Shown here: piece by piece, positions 2,790-61,379 of the stretch
Layout of the letters: each line of letters begins with the position of its first letter
Numbering within the stretch: the stretch's first letter is position 1
DNA from: Malacoraja senta
Lineage: Eukaryota
Length of the DNA: 64,000 nucleotides
Assembly: GCA_038087875.1 (NCBI GenBank)
Contig: CM075989.1
Coordinates: forward strand, 25,298,001-25,362,000
Direction: 5' to 3'
Notes under the pieces: generated by a model
The model's database searches: none
Told to the model about the DNA's origin: nothing
The model's input: the letters and a program-made list of their open reading frames with translations, nothing else
Made by a program: the position numbers and the translations under genes

Positions 2790-3600
2790 TGGAGTCAGAG
2801 TTATACAGCATGAAAACAGGGCCTTCGGCCCAACTTGTCCATTGCCTACCAACATGCCCCATGGACACTTGTCCCACATGCCCATGTTTGGTCCACATCA
2901 CTCCATTTACCCTATATCCAAGTACCTGTCTAAATGTCTTTTAATTATTGATATAGTACCTATCTCAACTAACTGGCAACTCATTACATATTCCCACCAT
3001 CTTCAGTTTGAAAAAATTGCCCCCTAGGGTTCCAATAAAATCTTTCCCCTCTCACCATAAACCTATGTCATCTGGTTCTTGATTCCTCTACCTTGCGTAA
3101 AAGATTCTGTGCTTCTACCACAGCTATTCCTCTCATGATTTATTCACGTCTATACGATCACCCCTCATTCTCCTGCGCTCCAAGGAATAAAGCCCAATCC
3201 TGCCCAATCCCCTATAGCTATAGTCAAGTCCTGTCAACATTCCTGTAAATCTTCTCGGCACCCTTTCCAGTTTAAGAACATCTTTCCTATAGCACTGTGA
3301 CCAAAACTGACCATAATACTCCAAACGTGGCCTCACCAACATCTTGTAAAATTGTAACATCCCAACTTCTATACTTAATATAAACACAAAATGCTGGAGT
3401 AACTTGGCAATACAGGCAGCATCTCTGGAGAGAAGAACTGGGTGACGTTTCGAGTCGAGACCCTTCTTCAGAATATAGTCAATACCCTGACTGATGAAGG
3501 GCAATGTGCCAAAAGCTTTATTTACCACCCTATCCAGCTGTATCACCATTTTCAAGGTACAATGTACCTGTACTCCTGGTTCCTTCTGCTCTACAATGAA
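2790..3600 (-). mobile_element. Decayed CR1 fragment with a nested Penelope-derived short element (about 3380-3475)
   Basis: MLQFYKMLVRPRLEYYGQFWS...LYSLERRRMRGD-like translation and CR1 tail. Confidence 0.8.
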
Positions 3601-5486
3601 ACTGGCAAGAACACAACTGGAGAAACAAGGAACTGCAGATGCTGGAGTAGCTCAGCAGGTCAGGTAGCATCTCTGGAGAAACCACCACCAACTGTATCCA
3701 CCCATCACTGTCAGAATTTATCCTGCCACTCCTCGCTTCCAGCTTTATCCCCCCCCCCAACCACAGAATCAGTCTGAAGAAGGGTCCTGACTTGAAACGT
3801 TACCTATCCATGTTCTCCACAGATGCTGCCTGACCCACGAGTTATTCTTTTACTGCCCTTTTTAGCACTCCTTAAGTATTTTGTTCAGTTTTAGTTCAAT
3901 ACTTGGTACACGTGTACTGGTGGAAGTTCAGGAAGCACATAACGTTGATTCAGGAATGACAGGACCGACTTACAAAAAGAATTGTGCAGGTTGGGCCCTA
4001 ATCTCACAGTTTTAGAGGTTGCCTTACTTTAAAACACAGTATTGAGGGGGTTTGATAGGGTTTATGCCCTCATGGGAGATGAAGATGAGGAGAGGGTTTG
4101 CATTGGAGGGCATAGTTTAAGGAACTGCCAAGACAGACCAGGGAGCCATTGGTCAGTGACACTTTGGAACTCTCTGTCCAATAAGCTAGAGATATCAATT
4201 AATTGTGTACATTGAAAGCCATGATAAAATTATTGGACTAAAGATATCAAGACTTTATGCAAGCACGAAAGAAAGAGGCCAACATGCGATCAATAAGATC
4301 ATAAATAGGTACATGATCTAATCATGCTTCCATTTCTTAAAGTCAATTGTCAGTGACTAGTCCACAAATCAAGAGTTTCTGCCCCAAAGCTAATCCTCTT
4401 GTGCAGCATTAAATAACTGCTCAAACCTTCACCTTTGAGACAGAATTACAGACACAAGTTTGATTGTAATGTATTGACAAGAATGGTGCAGGCCACTTGG
4501 AAGTATCACCATTTCCAATTATTCTCCATTAATACAGACAGCACAAAAAACATTTAGCGCTCCAGCACTGGTTTTGCTAAGCTGCCTCACATTGGGTTTG
4601 AATCTTTTTAGTGAATGGCCCACCAGTGGCAATGCCAGCTCCAATTGTCTAAACTCATTTACACTGAGGACTAAGTCAAAGGTATATGACAATTGCACTC
4701 ATTAAACAGCAAAGCACAAGGTTTTATTTAAAATTTACATGTTATCAGATTGTGGCAATAGAATTCCATTCGGTGCAATCTACATTTTTGTGAAGAGAAA
4801 CAGGACAAAGACTGCGGATATCCTTACACCAATTCAATTCAAATGTAGGATATCTAGCTACATTCGATTACTGTTAGTCTCCTCAACTTGATTTCAAAGA
4901 TAACCACAAAATATTTTTCCTATAAAAATAACTAAAACCTTAGGCAAAGAGGAAATGTTGCTTTGATATGTTTGCTATTACATCAGATTTAAGATGAGGA
5001 TTAAAATTATATAAACACATATATAAACAAGAAATATTCAAAGAATTTGATGCCAGTGACAGAAATCTTCCATCTCCAATAAGAGTTATACATAGTGGGA
5101 TAGCACATGTGCTCAGACTATTGGTCCTGGGTCTGAAAATGAATGGCAGGCCAAGGTTCAAGGGTTGAAATCTTGAAGGTCATTTATGAAACTGCTCTCC
5201 TTGGATGTTTTTATAAATAACAAATTTGAACAAAAGTGGGCATACAACCACTTAGAAACAAAGAGTCTTTCATTGTTGGATGCATTCAATTGCATTGCAA
5301 TAACTCAAGTTTATTACAGAAATTTTACTAAACAAGGTAGCACAATGACCCATGTATCCAAATGCACAGATGGAAATATAATTTGCAGATCCTTGCACAA
5401 TTCCCATTACAATTGATTTTCTGCTCTTTTTTTCTTCTAAATTTGAGCCAACAAAAATGCACAAAAGCAAGACTTGAGGAAGTATC

Positions 5487-7367: not shown

Positions 7368-7592
7368 GTGTAGGAAGGACCTGCAGATGTTGGTTTACAC
7401 TGAAGATAGAGACAAAATGCTGGAGTAACAGCGGGACAGGCAGCATTTCTGGATAGAAGGAATGGGTGACGTTTCGGGTCGAGACCCTTCTTCAGACTCC
7501 GAAGAAGTGTCTCGACCCAAAACGTCACCTATTCCTTCTATCCAGAGATGCTGACTGTTTCGGTGAGTTACTCCAGCATTTGGTGTGTATCT
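7368..7592. mobile_element. Inverted dimer of the Penelope-derived short element
   Basis: Two arms in opposite orientation meeting near 7500; flanked by direct repeat gattctaaat (7358-7367, 7593-7602). Confidence 0.8.
7464..7499 (-). ncRNA. Minimal type I hammerhead ribozyme-like core
   Basis: Sense gagu-CUGAAGA-a-GGGU(CUCG)ACCC-GAAAC-GUC-accc. Confidence 0.6.
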
Positions 7593-8631
7593 GATTCTAA
7601 ATCCTAATCTGGAGATTTATGATACAGAGTATAAAATATTACCTGATATTAGCAATTTAATGAACACATCTTAATAGAAACAAACTAGAAGTTAATATTG
7701 CTGGTGATCAGCAAATGGCAGAGATGAGGTCTTTGAGACCTCAAGCATAAAATAAACCGCTGCAGATCTGGGCTGAGAAATTCCACCTGTCGTTCTCATA
7801 GGTCAAAACCCAATGCCGATCTGGTTCAGGATTTAATTGTTTATTAATAAAGAAGCATTCCAACATGCCCATAATAAGCATTTGCATTTGAATCATGCAG
7901 ACGGTATTCAAAGTCAGAAAGCAATCAGTCTACTGCTCTTCGCACTCTGCAGCCTGACCTGCTGAACATTTCCAGCATTGTTTTTAAATACACAGTTCCA
8001 ATATCTAGTTTGTTTTTTAGTTACAAAACAGGAATCGTGTCACCAAGTCTCAGCCTACATCATGGTCAGTGTGATGCAAAAATATAAAAATGCCCTCTTT
8101 GATGAGCAAACCTCAAGAATTTACAAAGTTACATCATGTTTGGAACAGAAATGTGCTGTCAGTCTTATCACCATCTTGTTTTGAAAGACAATGCCAATTC
8201 AAGGTTTGTCATAAAGAATATTTTAATAAAAGGCCACCTTCCACTAGTAAAATCCAGTGACAACTGTACTGCATTGTAATCCAGAACTCAAAAAATGGCC
8301 TGTCTGTATGGAAGATAATTCAGCTCAGATCCAAACCTACAACTTTTACCTTTCTGCAATTTTTTGCACACTATCTTTGCTTGAAATCAAATTTAAAGTC
8401 AGCTTTTACCCAGCTGTTTAAAGCTCAAGGGGCAAGGAGACAGGAATCACCAAACTCCATGTTGGCTGCACATCATATAATGACCAGTTCCAGCTGTGGG
8501 AGATCTGGATCATTTGGCATACAAAACATTTTATTGTAGAGAGAAACATTGCAATACAATTCTAAAAGCCTAGTCCGTTGCAGGATATCAACTGTGTCCA
8601 CATTCAAAAGGCATTCCACAACATTTTCCAT

Positions 8632-9910
8632 GCAGGAAGGAACTATAGATACTGGTTTAAACTAGACACAAAAAGCTGGAGTAACTCAGCGGGTCAGGTA
8701 GCATGTCTAGAGAAAAGGAATCGGTGACATTTTGGGTTAAGACCCTGCTTCAGAATGAGAATCAGGGGAAAGTGAAACAAGAGCAGTGATATAGAACAAA
8801 TGAATGAAAGATATGCAAAAAAGTAACAATGATCAAGGAAACAGTCCATTGCTGGCTGTGTTATACAGACAATAAACCTCAAAAGGACAACAGTGAAGCA
8901 TCTCTGGGTGATGTTTTGGGTCGAGACCCTTCACCGAACGTCACCCATTCCTTCTCTCCAGGGATGCTGCCTGACCCGCTGAGTTACTCCAGCATTTTGT
9001 GTCTATCTTCGATTTAAACTAGCATCTGCAGTTCCTTTCTGCACAGGACAGCAGAAAACTAGTACAATGACCTAGGAAGGGGGAGGGATGGAGAGAGAGA
9101 GGGGGATGCAAGGGTTACTTGAAGTTAGAGAAATCAATATTCATACCGTCAGTTTGTAAGCTGCCCAAGCGAAATATGACATGGTGTTCGTCCAATTAGC
9201 ATTTGGCCTCTGACAATGGAGGACAGAAAGAGGAAGAAGGGTATCGACCCGAAATGTCGCCTATTCCTTCTCTCCATAGATGCTGCCTCACCCGCTGAGT
9301 TTCTCCAGCATTTTTTGTGTACCATGGAGGACAGAATTGTCAGTATGGCAATGGGAGTTAAAGTGTTTGGCAACCAGGAGATCTCATAAGCCAAGGCGGA
9401 CTGAGCGAAAGTGTTCAGCAGTCGCCCAGTCTATGCTTGGTCTCGCCAATATACAACAGCCCACACCTGGAACAACGAATACAGTAGATGAGGTTGGAGG
9501 AGGTACAAGTGAACCTCTGCCTAACCTGAAAGGACTATCGGGGTCCTTCGACGGAGTCGAGGTAGAAGGTATAGGGACAGGTGTTGCATCTTCTGCGGTT
9601 GCAGGGGAAAGTACCTGGGGAAGGGGTGGTTTAGGTGGGAAGGGATGGGTTAACCAGGGAGTTGCAGAGGGAACGGTCTCTGCGGAAAGGGGTGGGAATG
9701 GAAAAATGTGACTAGTGGTGGGATATTATTGGAGGTGACTGATTGGGTGAAAGGTGAGAACTAGGGGAACTCTGTCCCTGTTGCAACTGGGGAGGGGGAG
9801 TGAGAGCAGAGCTACGGGGTACCGAGGAGATATGTGTGAGGGTTTCATCTGTGATAGAAGTGGGGAACCCTTGTTCCCCAAAGAATGAGGACATCACGGA
9901 TGTTCTGGAC
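8632..9910 (-). mobile_element. Decayed Penelope-like retroelement (GIY-YIG region and 3' terminal repeat) with nested short copies
   Basis: Minus strand reads FQVRQRFTCTSSNLIYCIRCSRCGLLYIGETKHRLG (about 9420-9535) and LDEHHVIFRLGSLQTDGMNIDFSNFK-stop (about 9116-9196). Confidence 0.88.
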
Positions 9911-12167
9911 CATTTGCCTGTCCATTCTACAAATCTTTTCACTACTCTCACTGCAGGGTACCCGAGAGTGTGCACAGGTAAGTTTCTCTCTGTCCTAATG
10001 CTATTTAAAAAAAAAGTAAGAATCTGGTATACACATTCCATTTCTCACTGCATTTCCCAACAGCCTGCAGTTATATCACCATATTCCCCTTATAGCATTC
10101 ACACCAGTCTGGTTGGTTCCAGGCAGGCTCTTCTGACACTCCAAACAACGTATTCACTTGGCAAGCGAGAACTTACTCAATTTATTGAATATTACGTAGT
10201 ACATACGGTGAGAACCCTGATTTTTGTGTGTTAAACTTACTGCAGCCCAACGTTCCTCGACATGCACAGATTTAAACCAAAGGTATAGGACCTCTGGTGC
10301 ACCCATGTCGCCCCTTTGTCACACACAAAGAACACATTTATGCCCTGCTTTTTTGTTTAATTCACCACACAATCACAAATACCAAGATTTTATAGGTGCA
10401 GTCATAGCCTTGATGTGCAGCAAGGAAGGAAAAAAAAGCCTATTTAACAGGGCTGAGATACAGTTTTTAAGGATGGAGTTCTAGTGCTTCCTCCAGAGTG
10501 GTGGAAGATTTTTTGGATAATTTTTAAGGAAGGGTTCGATACTTGAAGAATTGACTGGACTGTGATTTTGAGAGTACAATCAGATCAGTTGGTGTCATCG
10601 TATTAAACAATAGAATCAGCTCCTATCTGAGTGAGCACTAGCCGTTGGTTTATTTTTCAATTATGCCCTCACTTTGCTAAACTTCAGCAGACACAAAACG
10701 AGCTTGTTTAACCTTTCCTTGCAAAACCAGTGTCCATTGGCTCAGCACCCACCTTCTTTCTGATTTATATACAACTGAAATATTGTATATACATGCTCCC
10801 TATCTTTTATTCAACTTCCCCAGACTATTACTCTGCTATATTCATGCTCTAAAATACCCAAATATCATCTTTTGATAAAATACTTTACTCAGCAGGCCAG
10901 GCAACATCTCTGGAGAGAAGGAATGGGTGACATTTCAGGTGGAGACCCTTCTTCAGACTCGCATCCTTTTGCCAGATCTTTGCACAGTCACGACCTATTT
11001 TTGTGGTGTCCGTTTGTCCTCTTTCATCGACAAAATTGAAGTCACCGTACTTCAGTCGGTTAACTTCATACAAGACATTTATACAAATTGTAAAAAACCG
11101 AGACTAGGGTATTATCCCACTGACACATCAATCGAACAAAAGGGTAGTTTATGCACAATTTTCCAGTTAGTACGTCAATTATCTATCCAATAAATATATA
11201 TCCACCTACACCAAATTCTATTTTCAACAACTTTTGATGTAAAACTTATCAAAAAGGTCCCCCAAAAAAGTAGACTTGCTCTACAGCACATAATTCAAAG
11301 AACTTTTTGGGCAAGAATCAAAGTGCTGTGGGAACTCAGCAGGTAAAACAGAATCTGTGGAGGAAATAGACTAGTGATATTTTGGGTGAGGACCGTTTGA
11401 AGAAAGGTCCCTCAAAGGATCCCATCCCAAAATATCCATTCCCTGACCCGCTGAGTTCCTCAGCACTTTATTTTTTGACCAAGATCCCAGCATCTGGAGA
11501 TTCTTGCAACGTCAGCATTTTCATGTTGTTACACAAATTAAACTCAAAATTCAATTTTGAAAGATCTAGTAATATTATGCAAATGATTTAATATCCAGAA
11601 GTTGCAAAAATTGAAGAATTGATACATTCTTCATACATAAAACCTCAAATATCCACACAACTGTCTGATACTCCTAACTAGGAGTTATTTAGTATATCTC
11701 CAGACATATATACTGATGCACGATTTATATCCATGCCTCTTCAAGCATCTTTGAATGAAATCACGATTGATTTATAATCTTAATAACAATTACTATGTCG
11801 AAACTTTAACTTCAATTCCTCATTCTTGGTCAAGTTTCTGACAAAGGATCTCACTAAAAACACTGGCCGAGTAGTAGCTGTCACCTGGAGAAAAGTTCCA
11901 CACTATAGTACATCAGTCACCCTCTGGGTGTAGAAGTGACTTCAAGCTTGCGAGCTCCTTCGCACCACTTGCCATTCACTTTGCTCTTCCCTCGCCTAGG
12001 TGGGTGTTTTTATGTTTATACTTTCAGACTGTGACATGCATTGACTATAGTTTGACCTCTGCTGTCCGCACAGAGAGGGGTGCTCCCCCGGCATCACCTC
12101 CTCCTCCCCAGAGCACAAAGATCCGGAGTATCAGCGGCTCAGCTTGTGTCCATCACCTCCTCCTTAC

Positions 12168-12953
12168 CTCGTACGACCAGGCGCATTGCACGCCGGCGAC
12201 CCTGCGCACACAACGGCCGAGCTCCAAGTCCTCGTGTGTGGTGTACATCTCCCGCAGACACTGGCCGATGTGAGGCAGCACCCGGCGGAGCAGCTCACGG
12301 CTCAGCACCACGCCCGGGCCACCCATGCAGAAGTTCTCGCCCGGCTCCAGCGCCAGCTTGCCCATCTCCTCGGGCGCGCCGAGGCCGGTCTGGCCCAGGT
12401 ACAGCGGCTGGCTGCTGTTGAGGCCCCGTAGGAAGCGCTCCAGCCTCTCGCCGCGGATGTACGTGTCGTCGTCGGCCCGCACGAACCACTCGAAGTGCTG
12501 CAGGTGCCGCTCGCCCATGTACTTGAGCATCAGGAAGGACTTCTTCTGCGGCGGGTAGGTGTCGTCCACGCCGGGCAGGGCGACGAGCGGCAGCGGCAGG
12601 CTGAGGTTGGAGCCCTCGCTGGAGAAGAACTCGACGCGGCCGGGGATGTGCCGGGCCCAGGTGCCGTAGGCCGCCAGCGCCCGGCTCCTCAGGTACTTCT
12701 TGGCGCTCATCACCCCCACGTACATGAAGCGGGAGGCGGCGGGCCGCTCGTCCTCGTCCTCGTCCTCCCCGCCCGCAGACCCCGCCAACTGCCCGGCGCC
12801 CACTCCCTTCCGCCCGCACCCGGCCCTCTCCCGCTGGCGCGCCGCCCGCCCCGGCATCGTGGCCCGGGGCAGCAGCAGCCAGGAGGCGAGGCCGAAGCCG
12901 AGCACTAGGCCCAACAACATGCTGAGCCAGGAGCGCCGGCAGCGCGGCGCCAT
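12168..12953 (-). CDS. CHSY1: Chondroitin sulfate synthase 1, first coding exon (262 codons); downstream exon(s) lie beyond the window start
   Basis: ATG at 12953 gives MAPRCRRSWLSMLLGLVLGFGLASWLLLPR (signal anchor), then YVGVMSAKKYL, GVDDTYPPQKKSF, RADDDTY, ENFCMGGPG, HEDLELGRC and CAWSYE, ending at donor GAG|GTAAGG (phase 0). Adjacent to SELENOS and SNRPA1 as in human. Confidence 0.95.
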
Positions 12954-13325
12954 CCCAGCCCTGGCCTCTACCGCGGCCGCTTCGCTAGTCGGGCTGTGGG
13001 TACCCGAGGCCGGGGCCCCGCCGTTTAGTGGGGCCTGTTGCCGGAGGCTGGGGACCCGCGGTGCCGCCGCCACTGCCGCTCCTCCATGTCCCCGCTGCCC
13101 GTTCCTGCTGCCTCACCTCACCTCACCTCACCTCACCCGTCCCCACCCACCCACACTGCCCACACTGCCCCCACTGCCCCCACTGCCGCCCCCACCTCTC
13201 TTACACTACTTTTCCTGCTGTCGACCCGCGCCTTTAACCCGCCCGCCACGAGCCGCTCATTGGCTGCTCTATCAAGCCACGCCCCTTAAAGGCGCCTTGG
13301 GATTTATATCCCGCCGACAGACTCA
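12954..13325 (-). promoter_or_regulatory. CHSY1 CpG-island 5' UTR/promoter
   Basis: GC/CpG-rich; CCAAT box (attgg 13259-13263 on +), Sp/KLF box gccacgcccc 13276-13285, short cctca and ccactgccc repeats. Confidence 0.65.
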
Positions 13326-13419
13326 GCTGGAAGGGTTTCGGCCCGAAACGTTGCCTATTTCCTTCGCTCCATAGATGCTGCTGCACCCGCTGAGTTTCTC
13401 CAGCATTTTTGTGTACCTT

Positions 13420-15980
13420 GGTCAGGAAACATGTTCCCGATGTTGGGGGAGTCCAGAACCAGGGGCCACAGTTTAAGAATAACGAGTAAGCCATTTAGAA
13501 CGGAGAGGAGTTAAAGAAAGGTAACTTTGAGGGTATGAGACGTGAATTGGCCAAGATTGACTGGCAATTAGTTCTAAAAGGGTTGACGGTGGATATGCAA
13601 TGGAAGGCATTTAAAGACTGCATGGATGAACTACAAAAATTGTTCATCGCAGTTTGGCAAAAGAATAAATCAGGGAAGGTAGTGCATCCGTGGATAACAA
13701 GGGAAATCAGGGATAGTATCAAAGCAAAAGATGATGCGTACAAATTAGCCAGAAAAAGCAGCATACCAGAGGACTGGGGGAAATTCAGAGACCAGCTGAG
13801 GAGGACAAAGGGCTTAATTAGGAAAGGGAAAATAAATTATGAAAGAAAACTGGCAGGGAACATAAAAACTGACTGCAAAAGGTTTTATAGGTATGTGAAG
13901 AGAAAGAGATTAGTTAAAACAAATGTAGGTCCCTTGCAGTCAGAAACAGGTGAATTGATCATGGGGAACAAGGATATGGCGGACCAATTGAATAACTACT
14001 TTGGTTCCGTCTTCACTAAGGAAGACATAAATAATCTGCCGGAAATAGCAGGGGGCCGCGGGTCAAAGGAGATGGAGGAACTGAGTGAAATCCAGGTTAG
14101 TCGGGAAGTGGTGTTGGGTAAATTGAATGGATTAAAGGCCGATAAATCACCAGGGCCAGATAGGCTGCATCCCAGAGTACTTAAGGAAGTAGCTCCAGAA
14201 ATAGTGGATGCATTAGTGATAATTTTTCAAAACTCTTTAGATTCTGGAGTAGTTCCTGAGGATTGGAGGGTAGCAAACGTAACCCCACTTTTTAAGAAGG
14301 GAGGGAGATTGAAAACAGGGAATTACAGACCAGTTAGTCTAACATCAGTAGTGGGGAAACTGCTAGAGTCAGTTATTAAAGATGGGATAGCAGCACATTT
14401 GGAAAGTGGTGAAATCATTGGACAAAGTCAGCATGGATTTACGAAAGGTATATCGTGTCTGCCGAATCTTATAGAATTTTTCGAGGATGTAACTAGTAGA
14501 GTGGATAGGGGAGAACCAGTGGATGTGTTGTATCTGGACTTTCAGAAGGCTTTCGACAAGGTACCACATAAGAGATTAGTATACAAACTTAAAGCACACG
14601 GTATTGGGGGTTCAGTATTGATGTGGATAGAGAACTGGCTGGCAAACAGGAAGCAAAGAGTAGGAGTAAACGGGTCCTTTTCACAATGGCAGGCAGTGAC
14701 TAGTGGGGTACCGCAAGGCTCAGTGCTGGGACCTCAGCTATTTACAATTTATATTAATGAGCTGGATGAGGGAATTGAAGGCAACATCTCCAAGTTTGCA
14801 GATGACACTAAGCTGGGGGGCAGTGTTAGCTGTGAGGAGGATGCTAGGAGACTGCAAGGTGACTTGGATAGGCTGGGTGAGTGGGCAAATGTTTGGCAGA
14901 TGCAGTATAATGTGGATAAATGTGAGGTTATCCACTTTGGTGGCAAAAACAGGAAAGCAGACTATTATCTAAATGGTGGCCGATTAGGAAATGGGGAGAT
15001 GCAGCGAGACCTGGGTGTCATGGTACACCAGTTATTGAAAGTAGGCATGCAGGTGCAGCAGGCAGTGAAGAAAGCGAATGGTATGTTAGCTTTCATAGCA
15101 AAAGGATTTGAGTATAGGAGCAGGGAGGTTCTACTGCAGTTGTACAGGGTCTTGGTGAGACCACACCTGGAGTATTGCGTACAGTTTTGGTCTCCAAATC
15201 TGAGGAAGGACATTATAGCCATAGAGGGAGTGCAGAGAAGGTTCACCAGACTGATTCCTGGGATGTCAGGACTTTCATAGGAAGAAAGACTGGATAGACT
15301 TGGCTTATACTCGCTAGAATTTAGGAGATTGAGAGGGGATCTTATAGAAACGTACAAAATTCTTATGGGGTTGGACAGGCTAGATGCAGGAAGATTGTTC
15401 CCGATGTTGGGGAAGTCCAGGACAAGGGGTCACAGCTTAAGGATAAGGGGGAAATCCTTAAAGACCGAGATGAGGAAAAACTTTTTCACACAGAGAGTGG
15501 TGAATCTCTGGAACTCTCTGCCACAGAGGGTAGTTGAGGCCAGTTCATTGGCTATATTTAAGAGCGAGTTAGATCTGGCCCTTGTGGCTAAAGGGATCAG
15601 GGGGTATGGAGTGAAGGCAGGTACGGGATACTGAGTTGGATGATCAGCCATGATCATATTGAATGGCGGTGCAGGCTCGAAGGGCCGAATGGCCTACTCC
15701 TGCACCTATTTTCTATGTATCTATGTATCCAGGAGGAAACACTTTTTCTCACAGAGAGTGGTGAGTCTGTGGAATTCTCTGCCTCAGAGGGTGGTGGAGG
15801 CAGGTTCTCTGGATGCTTTCAAGAGAGAGCTAGATAGGGCTCTTAAAAATAGCGGAGTCAGGGGATATGGGGAGAAGGCAGGAACGGGTACTGATTGGGG
15901 ATGATCAGCCATGATCACATTGAATGGCGGTGCTGGCTCGAAGGGCCGAATGGCCTACTCCTGCACCTATTGTCTATTGT
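13420..15980 (+). mobile_element. CR1 3' fragment acting as host, split by the younger CR1 insertion
   Basis: 13420-13510 continues collinearly at 15731-15980. Confidence 0.75.
13511..15730 (+). mobile_element. 5'-truncated CR1 LINE: RT ORF with one premature stop
   Basis: ORF 13535-15280 (NYRPVSLTS, YLDFQKAFDKV, GVPQGSVLGP, KFADDTKL); TAG at 15278-15280, same frame continues to 15634; (ctatgtat) tail; aggag duplicated at 13506-13510 and 15731-15735. Confidence 0.96.
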
Positions 15981-16267
15981 CAGGCAGCATCTGTGGAGAA
16001 CATGGATAGGTGACGTTTCACAGAGTGCTGGAGTAACTCAGCGGGTCAGGCAGCATCTGTGGAGAACATGGATAAGTGACGTTTCGGGTTGAGACCCTTC
16101 TTTTTTTTGCCGACATATACCCGCATTTAAACTCCTAGCAATTCCCCCACCCTAACCAACTTGTCCACAGTCATTCACACTACTGACTATAACACCATTC
16201 TAGAGAAGGCAAGAAACGTTTTTGTTATGTATATATACTTTATTCTGAATAAAGTTTATTTTTGAAA

Positions 16268-23125: not shown

Positions 23126-24344
23126 AGTTACAGTAAGTGAAAATCTAGCAGGCAAGCAGGATGCTTTCTGCAACCACCCCCATTTGAAGGCCACTATCTT
23201 CCACCATTTCTACCCAGTGCTTGGTACCTACTCCCAGCAGCCACTGGTTGTCCTCCAGGATGCACTGAGTGCAACCTGAAGGGCCTGTCGCACTTCGGCG
23301 ATCTTTTGGGCAACTACAAGCGACAGTGGCAACAATATTTGCTTTCGGAGGTTGTCGCGAGGTGTCGTAGGTGGATGCTAGTAAAACTAGTTCCTGACTC
23401 TCCTAAAGAGTCGCCTCAGTTGGACAGGCCCATAAGTGCGTGGGAATAGCGTAGATCAGGGGAGCCGCGACCAGCCGCGTCACTCGTTGTCCAGCCCACT
23501 CTCCAAGTCGCCGATAGACACAAAAATCCGGAGTAACATCCAATTTCTTCTCTGTGTCTGTGGACCGACTCCAAGCACCAAAGGCCCATTCATCTGCGGC
23601 GCTGCTCCATACATGATTGGCTTTGTGGAGATCAGAGCCAGATGTCACCGTGTCCCGGCACTCGGCCCCACACAGCCCTGCTAGCCGGACGGTTCAGTTT
23701 AGAGATACAACGCGGAAGCAGACCCTTCAGCCAACCGAGTCCGCACCGACCAGCGATCCCCGCACATTAACACTATCCTACACACACTAGGGACAATTTA
23801 CACTTATACCAAGCCAATTAACCAGACCTTCAGTCTGAAGATGGGTCTCGGCCCGAAACGTCACCCATTCCTTCCCTCCAGAGATGCTGCCTGACCCGCT
23901 GAGTTACTCCAGCACTTTGTGTCTATCGGTTTAAACCAGCATCGGCAGTTCCTTCGTACACGTGTACCTGTCCAAATGCCGTTTAAATGTCATTGTGGTA
24001 ATTTCAAGTGTAGAATGAAGACAAGAGTGTTTAGTTGTCGCGTGCAGCAACATCAGAACAATGACATTCTCAGTTGCTGCACCTTAACAGGCCGGTTAAA
24101 GCAACAACACACTGATACATGTAAATAGATTGATTTAGTTTACTATTGCCACCTGTAGCGAGGTACAGAGAAAAGCTTTTGTTGCGTGCTATCCGGTAAA
24201 TGCAAGCAAGCCGCTCACAATGTACAGATAAAGGAGAACGGGCGCAACATATATAATCAATAATACAATGGATTAATAATCAGTAATATTGAGTAATCAT
24301 CCCAGCATATCAAAGGAGGCCCAAGTATTAGCATTACAATTAAT

Positions 24345-24625: not shown

Positions 24626-27600
24626 CTAATTATAATATTGAACAAATCAAGACTTACCTATCGGATTTGAACATGAACAATATTATCCCAAGGTTGCAGA
24701 GTATTTGAATGGCATTTACTGCATAATCCCTGAGGTTATTCTTGGTAAAGTGAAGGGCAAAGTTCATCTCTACAAGTTTCATTTTCTGAAGTTAATTTGT
24801 AGTTTATATTTACCATTTTGCCTTTGCTTATTTGGTTCCGCGATACAAGACTTACATTTAAAGATGAACAAAATATAAATTTAAAGACAGATATCAACTA
24901 ATTTCCCCGATTGACTGAATATCGATTTCTTTAACATCCCCTCTCTCTCCGTCCCTCCCCCACCCGACTACTACCTGGTACTAGCTGCAAAGTCGTCTTG
25001 TTGGGTCTCATTGTGTGATAAGGAACTGCAGATGCTGAAGAGACACACAAAATGCTGGAGCAACTCAGCGGGACAGGCAGCATCTCTGGAGAGAAGGAAT
25101 GGGTGACGTTTCGGGTCGAGACCGTTCTAAAGGTTTCAGGTCGAGACCCTTAGAAGAAACGTCACCCACTCCTTCTCTCCAGAGACGCTGCCTGATCCAT
25201 GCTGTTCACCAGGGCGAATTCAGCACAGAGACTAACGGTAGTGGCGCAACGCTTCCGACTGCCCGGGACTCTTGCACTGAGGCTGCTCCATGGCCGGAGC
25301 TGCAGCGAGCGACTCGCCAGCCTGGCAAACACTTGCCAGCCCCGGCTTCCCATCTTCATCTGCCCCCGCCGCTGCTTCTGCTCCCGGCTCTTCAACACCC
25401 GCGGTCCATGCAGCTGATATGAGTTTTGAAATTCTCGTTGATCACAGAATTTCTCACGACAGAGCGTGAGAAATTTGTGATCAGCGTGAGAATTTGTCAA
25501 AATGCGTGAGTCTCACGCTCAAAGCGTGAGAGTTGGCAGCCCTGCAATACCTGACTGATGAATGCAAGCATGCCAGACCCCATCTATATTTCATGAGAAG
25601 AAAGATGGCATATGTTGCATTTTTCACTTGTAAATTTTGATCGAATTATAACCTGAAAATATACCCTATGATTTTTATACAAGAAGCTAATTATGCTAAC
25701 CATCTGCAGCTGAAGGCTCAGCTGCTTTACAGTTGGTTGGTGTAGTTACAAGTTACCCTGTATGGCAATATTCTGCAAACATATCAAAGTGAACGCAAAA
25801 ATATATACTACAGATAATAGAAATCGGATACAAAACAGGAAATCCTGGAAACACTCAGCAAGTTAAGCAAGTATCTGTGGGAAGCTAACATACTCATAAC
25901 AATCCTGGTCTCACTCCTCCACATAGTCCCTTTGTCCTTTCCATTTACCCCTTTATTTCGTCTTTACAGCAATTAAAACCAACTTGTTTATTTTCCTCTT
26001 TCCAAGTTCTAATGAAGGGTCTTTGACTTGAAACATAACTCACTCTTAACAGCAACCAAGAATCCATCAACAGTGTATTTAAACAGTGCGTACTGAACAT
26101 TTTAAACCATATTCAATTATTTATTCATATTTGTCCCTATGTCACCAGTCATATGTTCACAAACCATGAAATCATTTACCAATTGAGCCTATGCTAGTTC
26201 TTTAGTGTAAACCCAAATTAATCTTCTAATCCGATATCTCTCTTCAAATATGTATCCAATTTATCATGATTTCTGCAGCTAACACTCCCTATGGGCCACT
26301 ACGATAAAGCATTCTGTGACCTTATCTTTTTCAATGTGAACATATCACCACCAATTTACCACTATATTCTTCTTCGATCATCTTCAGCCTCTATTTTTAC
26401 AACAAAATGAAAGAAACAACTCTCAGTTTATCCTTTCAAAACATAATGTCATTCTGAAAACCACCAATCTGCTGGAGGGTGAATGTGGGTGGTTACAGTC
26501 TGCTGCACAGATACAGAAAGAAACACATCTACAGAAATAAACATAACTAGGATAGGAAGACTCAGATCTGCAGATTCCAACACATACTAATCCACACACA
26601 CACACATCCGAAGAAGGATCCCAACTCAAAATGCTGTCTATTCTTCCCTCCAGAAGCTACCCGAGCTGCTGAGTTACTCTGTCCGGGCTGCATTCTGATG
26701 CAGGCAGTGGAAGGTGAAGGGGACGGTCTGCAAACTTACATTCCACACCCTCAGAAAATACTGTCGTTCCGTGGTGGGCTCGGCAGGTGGGACAAGGCAA
26801 CCTCAGCATAGGGAAGTGGAGGGGCAGTTGCTGGCAGTGGCAGTCACAGGTTGTGGTGCTGGTGGAGGTGGCTGCAGGAGGCCCGAGAGCAGCCAGGCAA
26901 AGATCATACCTTTCAGAAACTTGGAAGGTGCATTAATTCCGGAAGAATTAATTTCTTACTCGCTGCAGCTTTACAGGCACATTAGATGCAACTGCAGTAA
27001 ATATATAATAAATTACCAGTTATTTTAAGTAAACCAGAAAATGATAGTGCAAAAAAACCCCAAAGTATATAGAGCAACCATAGTAGTGCAAAGTCGATAA
27101 TGGTTTGGTGCTGAGGTAGGGATGTGCAGGGCAGTTCGAGAACCTGATGATTGATTAGAAGCAATAAAGGTTCTCAGGCTTCCTGACAGTAAACACAAGA
27201 GGAGAGCATGACGAGAGTGACTGGGTCTTTGTTGACCCCGACAGTAAACACAAGAGGAGAGCATGACGAGTGACTGGGTTTTTGTTGACACTTGCTGTCT
27301 TGAGGCAGTGCTTCCTATAGATCTCTTTGACAGTGGGGTGCAGAGGGAGCATTGAGCTTGTCAGCATCAAGCTGGACAATGATATGTCGCTGTTACTTGA
27401 ACCTCTCCGTTTCACTGTACTAGCAGGAACTATGCTGACCGTACTACATGTATTGGGGTCGGGATCCCAGGGAGAAGATCTGCACGGATTTAGGCAAACA
27501 GATGCACACAAACAAACACAAAACCGACAGAAATACATTTCAGCCTGTCCCCACCCATGCTGCCTGGCCTGAGTGCATACACTATTTCAGCCTGTCCCAC

Positions 27601-34329: not shown

Positions 34330-34665
34330 TGTCTGAAGAAGATCCGGACCCCCGACCACCCATTCTTGTTCACGTCACCCAGCACTCTGCGAAACGTTAC
34401 TCCAGCACTCTGCGAAACGTCACTTATCCATGTTCTCCGATGCTGCCTGACCCGCTGTATTACTCCAGCACTCTGCGAAACGTCACTTATCCATGTTCTC
34501 CACAGATGCTGCCTGACCCCTGTGTTACTCCAGCACTCTGTGAAACGTCACCTATCCATGTACTCCAGATGCTGCCTGACCCGCTGAGTTACTCCAGCAC
34601 TCTGTGAAACGTCACCTATCCATGTACTCCACAGATGCTGCCTGACCCGCTGAGTTACTCCAGCC
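34330..34665 (+). repeat. Tandem array (about 66-nt unit) of the Penelope-derived terminal sequence
   Basis: Repeated gaaacgtcacctatccatg...gatgctgcctgacccgctgagttactccagcactctgt. Confidence 0.85.
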
Positions 34666-40740: not shown

Positions 40741-43349
40741 TCTATCTATTATATAAAACTCTGTGGCTGCCATCCGTCGTCCGGCGTCAAAATTCCCTTT
40801 GATACCGCCCTAGTCTATTATATAAAACTCTGTGGCTGCCATCCGTCCGTCCGTCCGGCGTCAAAATTCCCCTTTGATACCGCCCTAGGCCCACACAGCA
40901 CGCGGAAACGCCGATATTTTTTTTACCATTTCTAAAGAGATTACATTTATCTTTACGAATAGACACTCCTGATTAAAATTTGGTAGTGCTTGTGTAGACT
41001 TTTTTTTAAATAAAATACTTCTCCCCCCCCCCCACCCCAACATTTCAAAATGCTAAACAAACAGCTCTCAGCCATAGAATGTTAGTCACGTTTCCATTGT
41101 GTGATGTCACAATGCCCGATGCTCACACATGTCCAATCGGAATGGATCCATTTACATATGCCTTTGCAGCAGACCCAGCCCCTCCCCCGCAACCTGTGTC
41201 GAAGGGCGTCGTCACGTGTGTGGGGGTGATAGGGAATGGGGAAATTTCAAAATGTTTAAAAAAAACAGCTCTCAGCAATAGAATGTTAATGAAGGTTCCG
41301 TTGTGTGATGTCACAATGCCCAATGCACACAGATGACAAATCGGAATGGATCCAATTACATATGCCTTTGCAGCAGCACCAGCCCTCCCCCCCACCTGTG
41401 TTTGAAGGGCGTCGTCACGTGTGTGGGAATATAGAAAGAGGATTGTGGGTGATATGGTGATAGGGATGGACTGGCCCTACCCCTCCTACTTCAACTCCCC
41501 CTCCCCACTCTTCACCCTCTCTCCCTCTCCCCCTCCCTCCCCTCCCTTCCCCCTCCCACCACCCCCCATACCCCCTTCCCCTCACTCTTGCACCACTCCC
41601 AGCTACCCCCTCTCTCCACTCTTCCCCTCTCCCTCCCCCACCTCTCTCCTCCCCTCCCTCTCTTCCACCTACTCCTCTCCCCTTCCCCTCATCCCCTCCT
41701 CTCCACCTCTAACATCCCCTCCCCCCTCCCTGCCCTCCCCGCTCTCCTCCCACTCCCCTCTCCTCCCCCTCCCTCTCCCCCACCCTACTCTCTTCAACCT
41801 CACCAATCTCTCCCATTTCCTCCTCCCCCTCTCCACACCCCATCTTCCTCTCCCCCCTCCCGCCGATTGTGTTTGGAGTGTGGTTAGTGTGTGTGATGCC
41901 GCAGCCCACCCCCCCTCCCCGCAAACGCGCGTTGGTAAAACAGCCCGCCAACAGTCTATCTGTCTTTAAGACGGAACTGCACATGCTGGAAAATCGAAGG
42001 TACAAAAAAAAGCAGTATAACCTCAGCGGGTGCAGCATCATCAATGAATCAAAGGAAATAGGCAACGTTTCAAAAAAAAAAACCCATCTGAGGATGGGCT
42101 TCAGCACAAAGCGTTGCCTATTTCCTTCGCACCATAGATGCTGCTGCACCCGGTGTGTTTCTCAAGCTTTTTTTGTGTACCAGTCTCTCTGTCTCTCCCT
42201 CCCCTCTCTCTCTTCACAGCCCGTGGCTCGACTCATGCACGCCCGCTCCAACCCCCCCCCCTTCACCTCTCTCCCCCATCCTCTCCTTCCTCTCTCCACC
42301 CCTCTCCTCTCTCCCCCCTTCCTCTCCACCCTCCTCCTCCCCCTCATCACAATTTTTTTTTAAATAACATTACATTTTCTCTCTCTGCCCCCCCCCCTCA
42401 AGACGCACCTGAGAGGCGAGGGCTATTCGTCAGTGGATAGGGTGAAGATGGGATAAAAGAAAAAAACTAAGATAATATCAAGGGGTGTGATGAGTGTGTG
42501 TTTGTGGGTGCCAGATTCCCACCCGCAACCGTGCTTTGGAGGAAAGGGGGTGGTTAGTGTGACGCCACAGCCCCCCCCTCCCCCGCAAACGCACGTTCGG
42601 TGTCCAGACCCAACTGGTCTGCACTTAGTCTAGTTATACTATTAAAACTCTGTGGCTGCCGACTTCTGTCTGCCATCTGCCTGACTTGTGTCACAAATCG
42701 CCTTTGATACCGCTCCAGCCCCACAGCACGCGGAAATGCCGATGTTTTTTGCCATTTCTAAAGAGATTACATTTATCTTTACGAATACACTCCTGATTAA
42801 ATTTGGTCGTTTATGTACACGTTTTTAAAATAAAATCCATCCCCCCCCCCACCCCCACTCACTCATTTTGTCTCCTCCTGCTGGTCACCCACCATAACGG
42901 CTGCTGTCGACCGCCTCTGCTCCGAAAATGACGCCATCTTTTTTCCCCCGATTTTCACCCCGGGGTCTGAAGCACGTTCGGGGACCAGACCCAACGGGTC
43001 TGCACTTGGTCTAGTATTCTATTAAAACTCTGTGCCTGCCTGACTTGTGTCCGCCATTTCTAAAGAGATTACATTTATCTTTACGAATAGACACTACTGA
43101 TTAAATTTGGTCCTGTTTATGTACACGTTTTAAAATAAAATCCACCCCCCCTCATCACGACGCCATCTTTTTTCCGCTGATTTTCTCCGAAAAACGACGC
43201 CATCTTTTTTCCGCCGATTTTCTCCGAAAACGACGCCATCTTTTTTCTGCCGATTTTCACCCCGGGGTCTGAAGCACGTTCGGGATCTCACACCCCGGAG
43301 TCTTAAGCACGTTCGGTGTCCAGACCCAACGGGTTTGCACTTGGTCTAG
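40741..43349 (+). mobile_element. Non-autonomous Helitron, three head-to-tail units
   Basis: A|TC 5' start (tctatctattatataaaac); 3' hairpin cagaccc-aac-gggtctg then CTAG|T at 42630-42633, 43011-43014 and 43346-43349; no TSD. Confidence 0.82.
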
Positions 43350-43961: not shown

Positions 43962-44194
43962 GTTTTTAAGAAGGAACTGCAAATGCTGGAAAATCAAAGG
44001 TAGACAAAAGTGCTGGAGAAACTCAGCGGGTGCGGCAGCAACTATGGTGCGAAGGAAATAGGCAACGTTTCGGGCCAAAACCTGTCTGAAGTCTGAGTCT
44101 GAAGAATGGTTTCGACCCGAAATGTTGACTATTTCCTTCGCTCCATAGATGCTGCTGCACCCGCTGAGTTTCTCCAGCACTTTTGTCTACCTTC
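43962..44194. mobile_element. Inverted dimer of the Penelope-derived short element
   Basis: Inverted arms; 14-bp direct repeat tatttctacattta at 43948-43961 and 44195-44208. Confidence 0.85.
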
Positions 44195-45693
44195 TATTTC
44201 TACATTTATCTTGCCCTTTGTCCCTCCTAAATGCATCGCCTTGCACTTCTGCAGCCAAAATTCTATTTGCTGTCACTCTGCCTATAAAACAGCACTGACA
44301 TATTTTTGAAATCTCATTCTCTTTCTCACTCTCGAGACTGTGTGGATCTGGATTTACTACTCTAGGTAGAACATCACTCAGCACTATGATTACTAGTGGA
44401 GATGGAGAGTGGTCAATGTTGATACCTTCTATACATACAGCTAAATCATTGACATAAACCACAAATATACCACCTTTCAACAAGCTTCGCGGAGCCTGAT
44501 TGCAAACATTTCTCCAGGCTCTAACCTCTGCTTTTCCGCTGTGGTAGCTTGTCTATCTGAGGCTGTCCATCTTTGTTTGATGGAGAATGGCTTCAAGCAG
44601 CAATGGCCACACTGGAGTCAGTAGGAATCAAGGGGTAATCCCTCCATGGAATCATACATAGCACAAAGGAAGGCAGTTGTGATGAAGGTCAATCTCAGCC
44701 ACAGCCTTCTTGTTAGGAGTTCCTCTGGGTCGTGTCCTTCATCAATGAACTCAGTTCAGAAATGGGAATGTTCATTGATAATTGCACAATGTTCAACTCC
44801 AGCCGAGACTTCTCAGATAATGAAGCAGTGTAATAATGGTTGGACTCAATGCGCCACAGGGCACCTTGTTAGGACGACCCTAACCTCGCTACCACTGATG
44901 TTAGATACACTGGCCTCCTCTGTCCTCTGTTGAAACTCAGGTTACATGCACACATTCTGTGTTTACACAATTCATTGACAACCTGACTCCAGCGATTTCC
45001 AAATAGCACATCAGAGAGCGATGCCTTCAGAACAAAACGCATCAACCTTCCTAACAAAAGACTATTAGCCTGCTAATTTATTTCTCTCTCTCTCTGTGCA
45101 GAAACTGACTCTTTGCTGAGCTTCTTCAGCATCCTTGGCTTTCATGCCATGGTTAAGCTCTGGTGGTAATTACACTATGCGCCTTGGCATTAGGCCCATC
45201 AAGGTACTCCTCACGATGAGAACAGAGCACGAAACTGGATAGAAGCTCTCATCCCTCCCCCACTGATGAGTTCCGATGGGGTACTTATTAACGAGACAGG
45301 GAAGGTGATGCCTTTATCTTCTTCCTGCGTCGACCTGAGGATCAAGGATGATTGAGTTCTGTGGGTTCCAGGGTGATTGGTGGGACCTGCACTCTCCCAG
45401 AGGGGACAGGTGGTGCCTGATGGGATGAGTGGCAGGTCCTTTCCTTCCACTGTCCATATGCTCCTGACACAGGATGTTCTCAGTGCATCTTGAATGCTGC
45501 TCCTCCACTCCAACAGTTACTCTGCTCTGCATTGACCTTTCTTTCCACCTCCCATCCCAGGCTCTGTACCTATCAAAAGCCTCTCATCTCAAATACTTTG
45601 AGAAGGTAACCTACTAGAATTAGCAACCATCTCGCTTGACCCGAATATTTACATCTTTGTGAAAGTAAAAACTGACAATTACCCCAAAAAATG

Positions 45694-46059: not shown

Positions 46060-47282
46060 CTGTAAATACATAAATTATGTCTGGCATCTTAAACTTGCTA
46101 CTCTTTTTATTCAAAGATTAAAAGATTGACAATTGTTCATAAAATAGTTTCACAAGGACAAGGATGTTGAGGGTTGCTTTAACCAGTACTGTAACGGAGC
46201 TCAGTATTACATTATCAATTAGTAACAGTACCTGGGCTGTACAGTTCACTCGGATAGTGTTTACTACCAGTCAGCATGTACTGACAGCATTCAAGGAGTG
46301 GAGAGACAGTAATGTTTGTTGACATAATGGAAAAAGTCTGGCTTTGCTTCATAGAAAGGGGAGATTGACAGAGATCTGGGCAAATAAAAAAGGAACTAAA
46401 CCAAACAAGTGTAGAATTGCAAAAAAATTAGAACAGAGCAATTCAGCCATTATATTCATGCCAAATGAAAAAGAACTACCAAACATAATCTCACTATCCA
46501 TCACTAGTTAGGGCTTTCCATGTACAATTTCAAGTTCTATTTAAAATGTGGGATTTTGTCTCTATTCACCTTCCAGGCACACACCCAGCTAAAAAGCTTT
46601 CATTTTTAAACAGATTCTAAATTATCAGATTTTTTAGCCTTCTGCAAAAAGGTGCTCTCTATTTACAGTATCTAGATCCTTCATAATATTTTACACCCCA
46701 ATTAAATCTTCCCGTCTCTTATGTTCTGATAGAAACAGCCTCTCCAATCAGTAAAATGGGGGCTCAATCCATGATAGCTCAGAAATGAACACATTGGACA
46801 AATTTTCTTATCAAAGCTCGACACAAAATGCTGGAATAACTCAGGGGGTCAGGCAGCATTTCTGGAGAAAAGGAACAGATTATTTTTCGGGTCAAGACCC
46901 TTCATCAGACAGAGTCAGGGAGGGGGACACTGGAGGTTTGGTTTAATCTGATCAGTCTAGAAAAGGGAAGGCAGAATTTTCTCTGATCTTACATACTCTG
47001 CTTGTTCCTTTTTGAATCTCGAGGGGGATAGGGAATATAGTAGCTCTGAAGAAGGGTCTCGACCCAAAACATCACCCATTCCTTCTCTCCAGAGTTGCCG
47101 CCTGTCCCGCTGAGTTACTCCAGCATTTTGTGTCTACCACAGGGAATATAGTTTTGTGAAGCAGAAGGACACGAAGTCTGCAACAAAACTGCTAAACGCA
47201 TTATCGGCAGATTGGGCTTTGTGGAGAACAGGACTTTCCTTGCTTTGGACCATTTGATTTTCTGTTCATGCTCTCAACTCAC

Positions 47283-47376
47283 CAGTCTTCCTGTCTCTGC
47301 CTGGGATTTGCCCAGCCTGCAACATTCCTTTCAGCTTCTCCACCTCAGCCAGAGTTGATGCATTGGCAATCGCATT
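47283..47376 (-). CDS. SNRPA1: U2 snRNP A' exon 8
   Basis: NAIANASTLAEVEKLKGMLQAGQIPGRDRKT; 94 nt; donor GTGAGT. Confidence 0.97.
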
Positions 47377-47759
47377 CTGCAAATCAAACAGCAGCATAGC
47401 TTCATAGATTGACACGTTCAAAGGTGCCCTTTTAACCAAGTGACCCTTAAGTCTTTCCACAGATCTGCAGTCTCTCCAGGTACTAAAGTACTCAGTTGGC
47501 CCAAAGTCTACGAGATAATACACTAGCCATTCATGAGCAAAAAGGAATACACCTGCAATCTGAAACTGAATTTGACCATGTTTGGCACAGTGGGTCAAAG
47601 CTCCATGTTCAATGCCAATCCACAATCTCTATCAACGCATCTGTTTGCTTTCCATCACCTGCCAGATATATTAGAAAATCAAGTGTGGAGAGAACCCAAT
47701 GAACTGGAATTTACTAATAGTCAAAAAACGCAGTGTGAAAGCTGATAAACCCCAAGATT

Positions 47760-59846: not shown

Positions 59847-59994
59847 CAGATCCGGTTATTGTTCAACAGGAGACTTTTCAGTCTCCGCAGCAATGGAAAG
59901 CCATCCAATTTCCGTATTTCATTGTCCGAGAAGTCAATGGAGTCGAATTGATCCAGTGTCGCCCCCAAATTCTCCACAACCGGAATCTTATATC
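59847..59994 (-). CDS. SNRPA1: U2 snRNP A' exon 2
   Basis: GYKIPVVENLGATLDQFDSIDFSDNEIRKLDGFPLLRRLKSLLLNNNRI(C); 148 nt; donor GTGAGT. Confidence 0.97.
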
Positions 59995-60235
59995 CTGCAA
60001 CAATAAAAAAATATGTGTCCCATTATTCTGGCAGCGAAACAAAACAAATCCGTCTCGCCTTCAGCTGGGAGCGGGAACTCGGCGGCTGAGGGGCGTGAGG
60101 TCGGCGCCGGGGAAACGATCCTTGGCCTGAGGGGTGGAGGAGGAAGGACGGGGCCCGGGTGGGTGGGGGGGGGGGGTGGGGTACGAGGCCCGGGAGGAGG
60201 GGGGACGGGGCACAGGCAGATACTTCGGGCCTCAC

Positions 60236-60317
60236 CGCGAAGGTCCAGTTCCCGGTCCCGCACGGCGTTGGTGAACTGCGCCGCCAACTCGATCAGCTCC
60301 GCCGTCAGCTTCACCAT
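60236..60317 (-). CDS. SNRPA1: U2 snRNP A' exon 1
   Basis: MVKLTAELIELAAQFTNAVRDRELDLR; 82 nt; donor GCG|GTGAGG. Confidence 0.97.
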
Positions 60318-60377
60318 GCTGCCGCGATCCCACAATGCTCCGCACGCCAGCACTTCCGCGAGATCGCGGGGCCATCG

Positions 60378-61340: not shown

Positions 61341-61379
61341 CGCAGGAACCGGCGTGAGCTGAGGCCGGGCCGCAACCTC

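Follow-up and report, generated by a model that had tools for sequence, protein, structure and literature searches.

Penelope-like elements (PLEs) carry minimal hammerhead ribozymes in their terminal repeats (pLTRs). Single minimal hammerheads derived from truncated PLEs have been described in fish, coelacanth and Xenopus, with ~4,000 hammerheads per genome in coelacanth and ~9,000 in Xenopus as counted with a descriptor other than ours (PMC4209133). Truncated PLE ends with minimal hammerheads are a known kind of sequence, described since 2014 in fish and amphibian genomes. The minimal PLE hammerheads cleave poorly, and only as dimers or with the PLE protein (PMC4209133, PMC11167929), and cleavage is not needed for PLE insertion in vitro (PMC11167929). 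In a PLE from the anole, two internal sites at which the reverse transcriptase (RT) starts correspond to the tail (PMC11167929), and PLE inversions with a tail on one side have been described (PMC8557442, PMC3846280). A CX2-5CxxC linker before a C-terminal GIY-YIG domain is a feature of the Neptune and Nematis groups (PMC8557442). The intron of Drosophila Penelope lies 46 nt after the transcript start (PMC2377424) and ends at helix I of the hammerhead (PMC4209133). Non-LTR retrozymes have been reported from one chondrichthyan (PMC7229834, bioRxiv 2026.07.22.740005).

We analyzed 64,000 nt of Malacoraja senta DNA (contig CM075989.1, positions 25,298,001 to 25,362,000; hereafter the window), in which short repeats with hammerhead-like cores are dispersed. 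These repeats are terminal fragments of a PLE, make up ~5% of the window and are mistakable for a ribozyme SINE. Our literature search found no report on this PLE-end family in skates or rays; Repbase or Dfam may well hold it.

One copy of the repeat lies at the end of a decayed PLE at 8625-9900, and two other units (9229-9323 and 8894-9044) landed inside this remnant. Its features are:

9115-9900, minus strand: decayed, 5′-truncated PLE ORF with thumb end, CxxxxCxxC linker and GIY-YIG domain, carrying stops, frameshifts and the 9229-9323 insertion
8625-9114, minus strand: pLTR region at the 3′ end of the PLE, split by the insertion at 8894-9044 and closing with the hammerhead region and tail
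8726-8753, minus strand: damaged hammerhead core in its native pLTR position, sense to the ORF and ~360 bases after the stop
8894-9044, both strands: inverted two-arm insertion in the pLTR; the plus arm starts at GAAAC and has the tail
8884-8893/9045-9054: duplication framing 8894-9044, 10 bp with 1 mismatch; weaker
9216-9228, plus strand: left target-site duplication, 13 bp, the target being the GIY-YIG coding region of the PLE remnant
9229-9323, plus strand: short pLTR-end copy, 5′-truncated inside the core, with the short 3′ end, antisense to the interrupted PLE ORF
9324-9336, plus strand: right target-site duplication, 13 bp, an exact repeat of 9216-9228

The RT core is absent from the remnant at 9115-9900, and its GIY-YIG domain matched Pfam at E=0.13. 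The in-frame piece had 1888 relatives at E≤0.001, the best being proteins of Leucoraja (70%), Hypanus (58-59%) and Rhincodon (60-62%). Four of five long relatives contained both RT and GIY-YIG, and in the fifth only GIY-YIG was detected at that threshold. A search for a full-length batoid ORF did not find one (best long relative, 45-49% to a Hypanus protein). The CxxxxCxxC linker was also present in the proteins P0002, P0003, P0032 and P0033. P0002 is a Leucoraja gene model in which DUF4518 is fused to the linker and GIY-YIG of the PLE family, possibly through exonization or as a prediction artifact. Judged by its linker, which Nematis shares, and with the RT absent from the remnant, the parent element appears to be a Neptune-type PLE.

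The preliminary description of the window had placed a copy in sense downstream of the GIY-YIG ORF and linked the repeats to a Penelope-like terminal repeat. Both claims held: the copy spans 8632-8757 on the minus strand, albeit with a damaged core, and the same sequence ends the linker and GIY-YIG remnant. Without its insertion, the pLTR region at 8625-9114 is roughly 340 nt. Contigs from four sequencing runs joined position 8788 to a hammerhead start 14, 16, 5 and 4 times, respectively (among the 15 listed of 6903 joints). Since this joint occurred in all four runs, the pLTR link is not peculiar to one copy. In the window, ORF-linked sequence was seen for the GTC-accca subfamily only; GTT-gcc and GTC-accta (see below) were seen without an ORF partner. 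A second stretch, 24925-25010, resembles the sequence after the PLE stop, with 24 bases matching 9079-9102, and adjoins an inverted pair at 25013-25206. This arrangement is probably another insertion into a PLE repeat.

An nhmmer profile, built from 20 window copies and trimmed at about the main 5′ boundary, detected 41 matches to the 95-135-nt repeats (3388 bp, or 5.3% of the 64-kb window), of which 18 had E<1e-20. The same profile had no matches in the reversed window. The 41 matches correspond to 29 insertion units in the window. At least three subfamilies (GTC-accca, GTC-accta and GTT-gcc) could be separated by divergence 3′ of the cut site; copy 9229-9323 is an intermediate GTC-gcc type, and within GTT-gcc, 13330-13417 is identical at 88 of 88 bases to the young copy at 61076-61169. 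These results agree with what had been described earlier, namely well over a dozen copies of 90-130 bp, high abundance and at least two subfamilies (GTC-acc and GTT-gcc). If the window is typical, there are ~450 units and ~90 cores per Mb. In the contigs of the four runs, the hammerhead bin had 17-53 times the summed depth of the GIY-YIG bin, and repeat bins lay about five orders of magnitude above single-copy bins, depths that do not measure copy number. The other copies discussed below are:

3380-3474, minus strand: solo copy that landed in a LINE remnant; its core boxes (3444-3471) are intact
3637-3860, both strands: GTC-accta unit; the plus copy (core 3774-3801) continues upstream into pLTR-like sequence, and 3637-3680 is an inverted fragment
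7368-7592, both strands: head-to-head pair joined at AG|TCTG; the minus arm has an intact core (7468-7495) and tail, the plus arm the short end
7352-7367/7587-7602: duplication of pair 7368-7592, 16 bp with 1 mismatch
10887-10960, minus strand: solo copy, 3′-truncated, with a descriptor match at 10929-10956
13330-13421, plus strand: young GTT-gcc copy, truncated inside the core
15979-16102, minus strand: 66-bp tandem units behind a truncated head, running from GAAAC to the short 3′ end, without CUGANGA and stem II
23831-23961, plus strand: solo copy that has the tail and an intact core (23835-23862); a search for a duplication was negative
34396-34664, plus strand: 66-bp unit array of ~4 units, junction as at 15979-16102
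41966-42182, both strands: GTT-gcc head-to-head pair, tail on the minus arm only
41950-41965/42179-42194: duplication of pair 41966-42182, 16 bp with 2 mismatches
43962-44195, both strands: GTT-gcc head-to-head pair, tail on the minus arm only; duplication ~43949-43961/44196-44208
46809-46930, minus strand: copy with ~20 nt of pLTR kept upstream of the core
47045-47138, plus strand: solo copy with the short 3′ end; 14-bp duplication 47028-47041/47139-47152 with 1 mismatch
54568-54747, plus strand: 66-bp unit array of ~2.5 units, junction as at 15979-16102
61076-61169, plus strand: young solo GTT-gcc copy with intact core (61078-61105) and the short 3′ end, inside a 30-bp minisatellite
61062-61075/61170-61183: duplication of 61076-61169, 14 bp, exact

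The window also contains a chondroitin sulfate synthase-like first exon (12153-13112, minus strand; Pfam Fringe and CHGN) and exons at 47266-47628 and 59988-60380, both on the minus strand, with an LRR_9 match near 60300 (minus strand). The latter two exons presumably encode U2 snRNP A′. A nearly intact LINE ORF2 at 13499-15634 on the plus strand (RVT_1, 593 aa plus the following frame) comes directly after copy 13330-13421, and LINE remnants lie elsewhere. A minisatellite of 30-31 bp at 60410-61341, beside the LRR_9 exon, is interrupted by the young copy 61076-61169.

We examined the hammerhead cores. The core pattern of the preliminary description matched exactly at all three cores it had named as best (7471-7495 on the minus strand, 23835-23859 and 61078-61102 on the plus strand) and at nine places with up to two mismatches, compared to none in 100 shuffles. 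A minimal type I descriptor, written without the family sequence, found six cores in the window versus one in total over 30 block shuffles:

3444-3471, minus strand: descriptor core
3774-3801, plus strand: descriptor core
7468-7495, minus strand: descriptor core
10929-10956, minus strand: descriptor core
23835-23862, plus strand: descriptor core
61078-61105, plus strand: descriptor core

The proposed type I layout (CUGANGA, stem II, GAAA and NUH) is thus confirmed. A ribozyme had also been assigned to 9216-9336. There, the claim fails, as copy 9229-9323 starts inside the core, has no CTGA box and carries GAAAT for GAAAC. An Rfam scan of the window returned no hammerhead at E≤1 and only miRNA matches driven by microsatellites.

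All core boxes, in order, were kept in 5 of 15 core-spanning copies. Core cells differed from the majority of their own subfamily at 31 of 331 positions and 3′ flank cells at 142 of 1759 (p=0.45). The cores of the copies therefore decay neutrally, like their flanks, and the better preservation of core than flank on which the earlier reading had been staked was not found among the copies. Comparing the majority sequences of the two best-sampled subfamilies gave differences in 2 of 29 motif columns versus 17 of 67 flank columns (p=0.05); for the core alone, there were 0 in 13 (p=0.06). This comparison is a borderline sign that the source elements (subfamily masters) may have kept the hammerhead motif.

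Stem II consists of 4 bp with a G-C first pair, and 91% of its cells were paired; slid controls for the whole structure gave 7-53%. Covariation in stem II did not rise above shuffles (156/500), and the changes were almost all one-sided. RNAalifold of 16 copies returned only four pairs, all in the 3′ part and none covarying. As had been noted from the sequence, stem I is weak, with at most two contiguous pairs in 8 of 8 matched cores, fewer than the ~4-5 bp expected of a minimal type I hammerhead, and its pairing probability was 0 in 9 of 9 window folds (ViennaRNA predictions for naked RNA). Instead, in both intact GTC-accca copies, ViennaRNA predicted pairing between the stem II 5′ arm and bases after the cut site (probability 0.78-1.0). 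The helix III palindrome was predicted to form self-duplexes of 4 bp and 6 bp (−3.1 and −4.1 kcal/mol), which fits the requirement of the dimer model. We conclude that the hammerhead is a passenger in the short copies. By analogy with described PLEs, in the source elements it probably acts only when dimerized or assisted by the PLE protein.

Two bases go from A to G between subfamilies, namely the one at the start of the stem II 3′ arm and the one that directly follows the cut site. The two sites are model columns 23 and 35 (for example, in 7468-7495 and 61078-61110). In the predicted folds, the post-cleavage strand thus keeps mimicking the stem II arm, and the alternative hairpin that hides the cut site is preserved. 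As a structural model, this hairpin might be an off-switch.

Pattern scans outside the window yielded one comparator. Metagenome contigs had no match to the long pattern and one to the short pattern, L001, a different family with the same core; viral and prokaryote contigs had no matches. In L001 (1-48, minus strand), an unrelated animal-like contig, the core and stem II are almost those of our family, stem I has 4 bp and the loop of helix III is palindromic. L001 serves as a folding comparator only, and it folds as a canonical hammerhead, with a stem I probability of 0.71-0.95 (ViennaRNA).

The copies carry several marks of PLE insertion. Their 3′ ends form two classes ~35 nt apart: 7 matches reach past column 133 of the model, to an AC-rich terminus, and the others with a complete 3′ part end near columns 99-104. 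The longer end is, by its likeness to described PLEs, the PLE tail. In 4 of 4 runs, one of the top loose ends was the tail terminus followed by T-rich sequence of low agreement (among the 24 listed of 7443). Two-strand pairs make up 6 of the 29 units. The tail is on one arm only in all three complete head-to-head pairs, with one duplication framing both arms, and head-to-head joints were present in the contigs of all four runs (among the 15 listed of 6903 joints).

Flanking duplications scored ≥12 at 6 of 29 units compared to 6 of 150 random sites; those at the scoring units are 13-16 bp, and 23 of the 29 units lack a strong duplication. The two duplications reported in the preliminary description, 13 bp at 9216-9228/9324-9336 and 14 bp at 61062-61075/61170-61183, are both exact. 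The second is weaker, since it lies inside the 30-bp minisatellite and the same 14-mer variant recurs at 61262. One copy adjoins a (CA)n run, a likeness to the Neptune clade (PMC8557442). No empty sites were seen in the contigs, and those of one relative (relative B) reach into four insertions.

Our preferred reading is that the short repeats are pLTR ends of Neptune-type PLEs, inserted by the element's own RT/GIY-YIG protein. We put the probability of this at roughly 0.8, because the same sequence ends the ORF remnant, there are two 3′ ends, inversions have the tail on one arm, and duplications of 10-16 bp frame the copies.

The 5′ ends bear on how the copies arose. Of 34 non-array matches, two start at model column 33 and none at columns 34-37, the positions that directly follow the cut site. 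Since the core upstream of the cut site is retained in the copies, cleavage did not make their 5′ ends. Instead, 16 matches have their start ahead of the core, in columns 2-6. Three of the 16 continue into pLTR-like sequence, and another is probably a junction artifact. This leaves 12-13 of 31 copies that start within five columns at (C)AG|TCTGAAG (p~1e-6 against a flat null over 60 columns; this choice of null is arbitrary, the profile was built to begin there, and the two arms of an inverted pair do not count as independent). A second group of 5′ ends lies at GAAAC, right after stem II, and comprises three single arms and seven array units. Upstream of the 5′ boundary, the commonest context was pLTR-like in 4 of 4 runs, with low agreement (0.36-0.42).

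A sharp 5′ boundary, together with a large excess of terminal over ORF sequence, counts against the PLE-end reading, as both are also expected from a dedicated short non-autonomous family. The masters of such a SINE-like family would be short, pLTR-derived and self-transcribed, using the PLE protein in trans via their 3′ part; pLTRs suffice for trans mobilization (PMC3846280). It would also suit the young GTT-gcc copies, which are identical at 88 of 88 bases and have no ORF-linked partner in the window, and the 66-bp array junction at three loci, which implies that at least one derived form spread. However, the search for tRNAs was negative, Rfam matched none of the copies, and all 18 strong copies lacked an A or B box, both internally and in the preceding 60 nt. 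In 18 copies, the 3′ contexts were discrete ends, with no poly(A) or simple-repeat tail. The solo copies also lack the upstream pLTR, where PLE promoters sit (PMC6765202, PMC2377424), and 3 of 16 complete-head copies continue into pLTR, in keeping with the pLTR-like boundary context. Since there is no tRNA and no A or B box, and the heads are not at the cut site, the SINE-like, ribozyme-headed family of the preliminary description was not borne out, and we regard an independent family of this kind as quite unlikely.

Tandem copies suggest a second alternative, a non-LTR retrozyme, in which head-to-tail units would cleave as dimers and circularize, the PLE protein would reverse-transcribe the circles, and the solo copies would be monomers. 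In the contigs of all four runs, the 3′ end of one unit is joined to the start of the next, and five such joints were listed, with counts of, for example, 32/35/4/0 and 21/18/4/5 across the runs (among the 15 listed of 6903 joints). The palindromic helix III, with its predicted dimer duplexes of −3.1 and −4.1 kcal/mol, would suit this cycle, and an origin of retrozymes from pLTRs has been proposed (bioRxiv 2026.07.22.740005). However, the repeated unit lacks CUGANGA and stem II in 3 of 3 window arrays, and by the criterion of bioRxiv 2026.07.22.740005 these 66-bp arrays are therefore not retrozymes. The positions of the head-to-tail joints vary, as separate template jumps would produce, and the ends are no permutations of a single circle. 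Stem I is limited to 2 bp, the cut site is concealed in the predicted fold, and in the retrozyme work 8 of 9 tested dimers did not cleave (bioRxiv 2026.07.22.740005). We consider a retrozyme origin very improbable. The 66-bp unit consists of the second half of the hammerhead and the short 3′ end, with one junction at three loci (15979, 34396 and 54568), and seems to be a ribozyme-less, pLTR-derived minisatellite that spread as such.

Recombination between the two pLTRs of complete insertions would leave the duplications in place, and recombination or deletion has been suggested as the source of solo pLTRs in rotifer PLEs (PMC3846280). It is an extremely improbable source of the solo repeats in the window, as these retain no more than the final 95-135 nt of the roughly 340-nt repeat region, have a common start and often occur as inverted pairs inside one duplication.

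Under the PLE-end reading, insertion could proceed as follows. The GIY-YIG endonuclease would nick the target, as in the anole PLE work. By the same analogy, RT would use an uncleaved RNA template and begin internally, either ~65 or ~100 nt beyond the cut site. Our data suggest that synthesis would mostly stop early, at (C)AG|TCTGAAG before the core or at GAAAC after stem II, and that fold-back or a template jump would often follow, giving inversions and tandems. The hammerhead decays neutrally after insertion.

Several events could make synthesis stop at (C)AG|TCTGAAG. We tentatively give a little less than an even chance to run-off at the transcript start. The boundary sequence is TCAGTC (TCATTC at 8757), which we take to fit the initiator consensus, so that RT copying from an mRNA 5′ leader would run off there, giving 95 or 130 nt. 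A stall or template switch at the structured motif is possible, if doubtful. A 3′ splice site, as in Drosophila Penelope, appears somewhat unlikely. The 5′ boundary is a good 3′ splice site, with a pyrimidine tract followed by AG. The copies with duplications have only 0-4 extra bases before TCTG, indicating that no first exon was copied. A weak search turned up no annotated protein with a splice junction at the 5′ boundary. In two runs that we guess to be RNA, contigs cover the chondroitin sulfate synthase-like exon and not its intron; contigs carry no information on ends, strand or level. We also considered whether a G before AGTCTG was a spliced first exon or a copied cap. This idea was dropped with only two copies left, because the partner arm supplies the G in two inverted pairs and the duplication supplies it at 61074; the literature searched offered no usable support for cap copying.

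A wider form of the run-off explanation, that most of the short copies are run-off cDNAs of the Neptune mRNA 5′ leader, with RT starting in the upstream pLTR and ending at the capped A of TCAGTC, is conceivable, and we hold it with doubt. If it is true, the genome would be a fossil map of the transcription start and of two RT start sites. There would be some 10^5-10^6 copies, as extrapolated from one window, and possibly the densest hammerhead load of any vertebrate. The first hammerhead of the mRNA, with a 2-bp stem I, could not cut, and the head-to-tail joins would be raw material for retrozymes. A 5′ pile-up that marks the transcription start would matter because the PLE cycle is poorly resolved with respect to start site, short insertions and the role of the hammerhead, and hundreds of thousands of sharp-ended natural insertions would make that cycle countable. 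Most hammerheads tallied in such genomes are dead passengers.

We compared the family with described systems. The non-LTR retrozymes resemble it in being short and non-coding, with a type I hammerhead, a relationship to pLTRs and dispersed monomers (PMC7229834, bioRxiv 2026.07.22.740005). They differ in forming tandem arrays with a complete and mostly canonical hammerhead in each unit of 150-450 bp and in having circular RNA, whereas the arrays described here have lost half the core.

The minimal hammerheads of PLEs (PMC4209133) are closer. Features in common are CUGANGA, the extra base before stem II, the G-C first pair of stem II, the lack of helix III together with a palindrome for the dimer, the pLTR position in sense, the predominance of scattered single motifs and the close pairs on opposite strands. 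The Schistosoma PLE families have a stem II of 4-5 bp and a stem I of 7-8 bp, compared to 4 and 2 bp here; D. virilis, like our family, has a 2-bp helix I. Cartilaginous fish are not named among the hosts in the available portion of that survey (PMC4209133). With six cores in 64 kb, the density would be far higher than in coelacanth or Xenopus if the window is typical, the counts coming from different descriptors.

Poseidon_Ac of the green anole (Frangieh et al. 2024, PMC11167929) matches the family in its two 3′ ends, 30-40-nt tail, AC-rich end and AT-rich flanks. Further likenesses are that the hammerhead lies roughly 100 nt before the end, that the element inserts into itself and that the RNA template is uncleaved (PMC11167929). 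Poseidon_Ac belongs to the Poseidon clade and has its start codon at the hammerhead (PMC11167929), whereas our element has a Neptune-type linker and most copies have no AUG there. The available part of that study describes no pile-up of 5′ ends before the core, on which its Fig. S2 may bear (PMC11167929).

The remaining comparison is with the Neptune clade of endonuclease-containing PLEs (PMC8557442). The remnant lacks RT and is assigned by its linker, which Nematis has too (PMC8557442). With the Neptune clade, our family shares the linker and GIY-YIG domain, 5′ truncation, inverted 5′ copies and a one-sided tail (PMC8557442).
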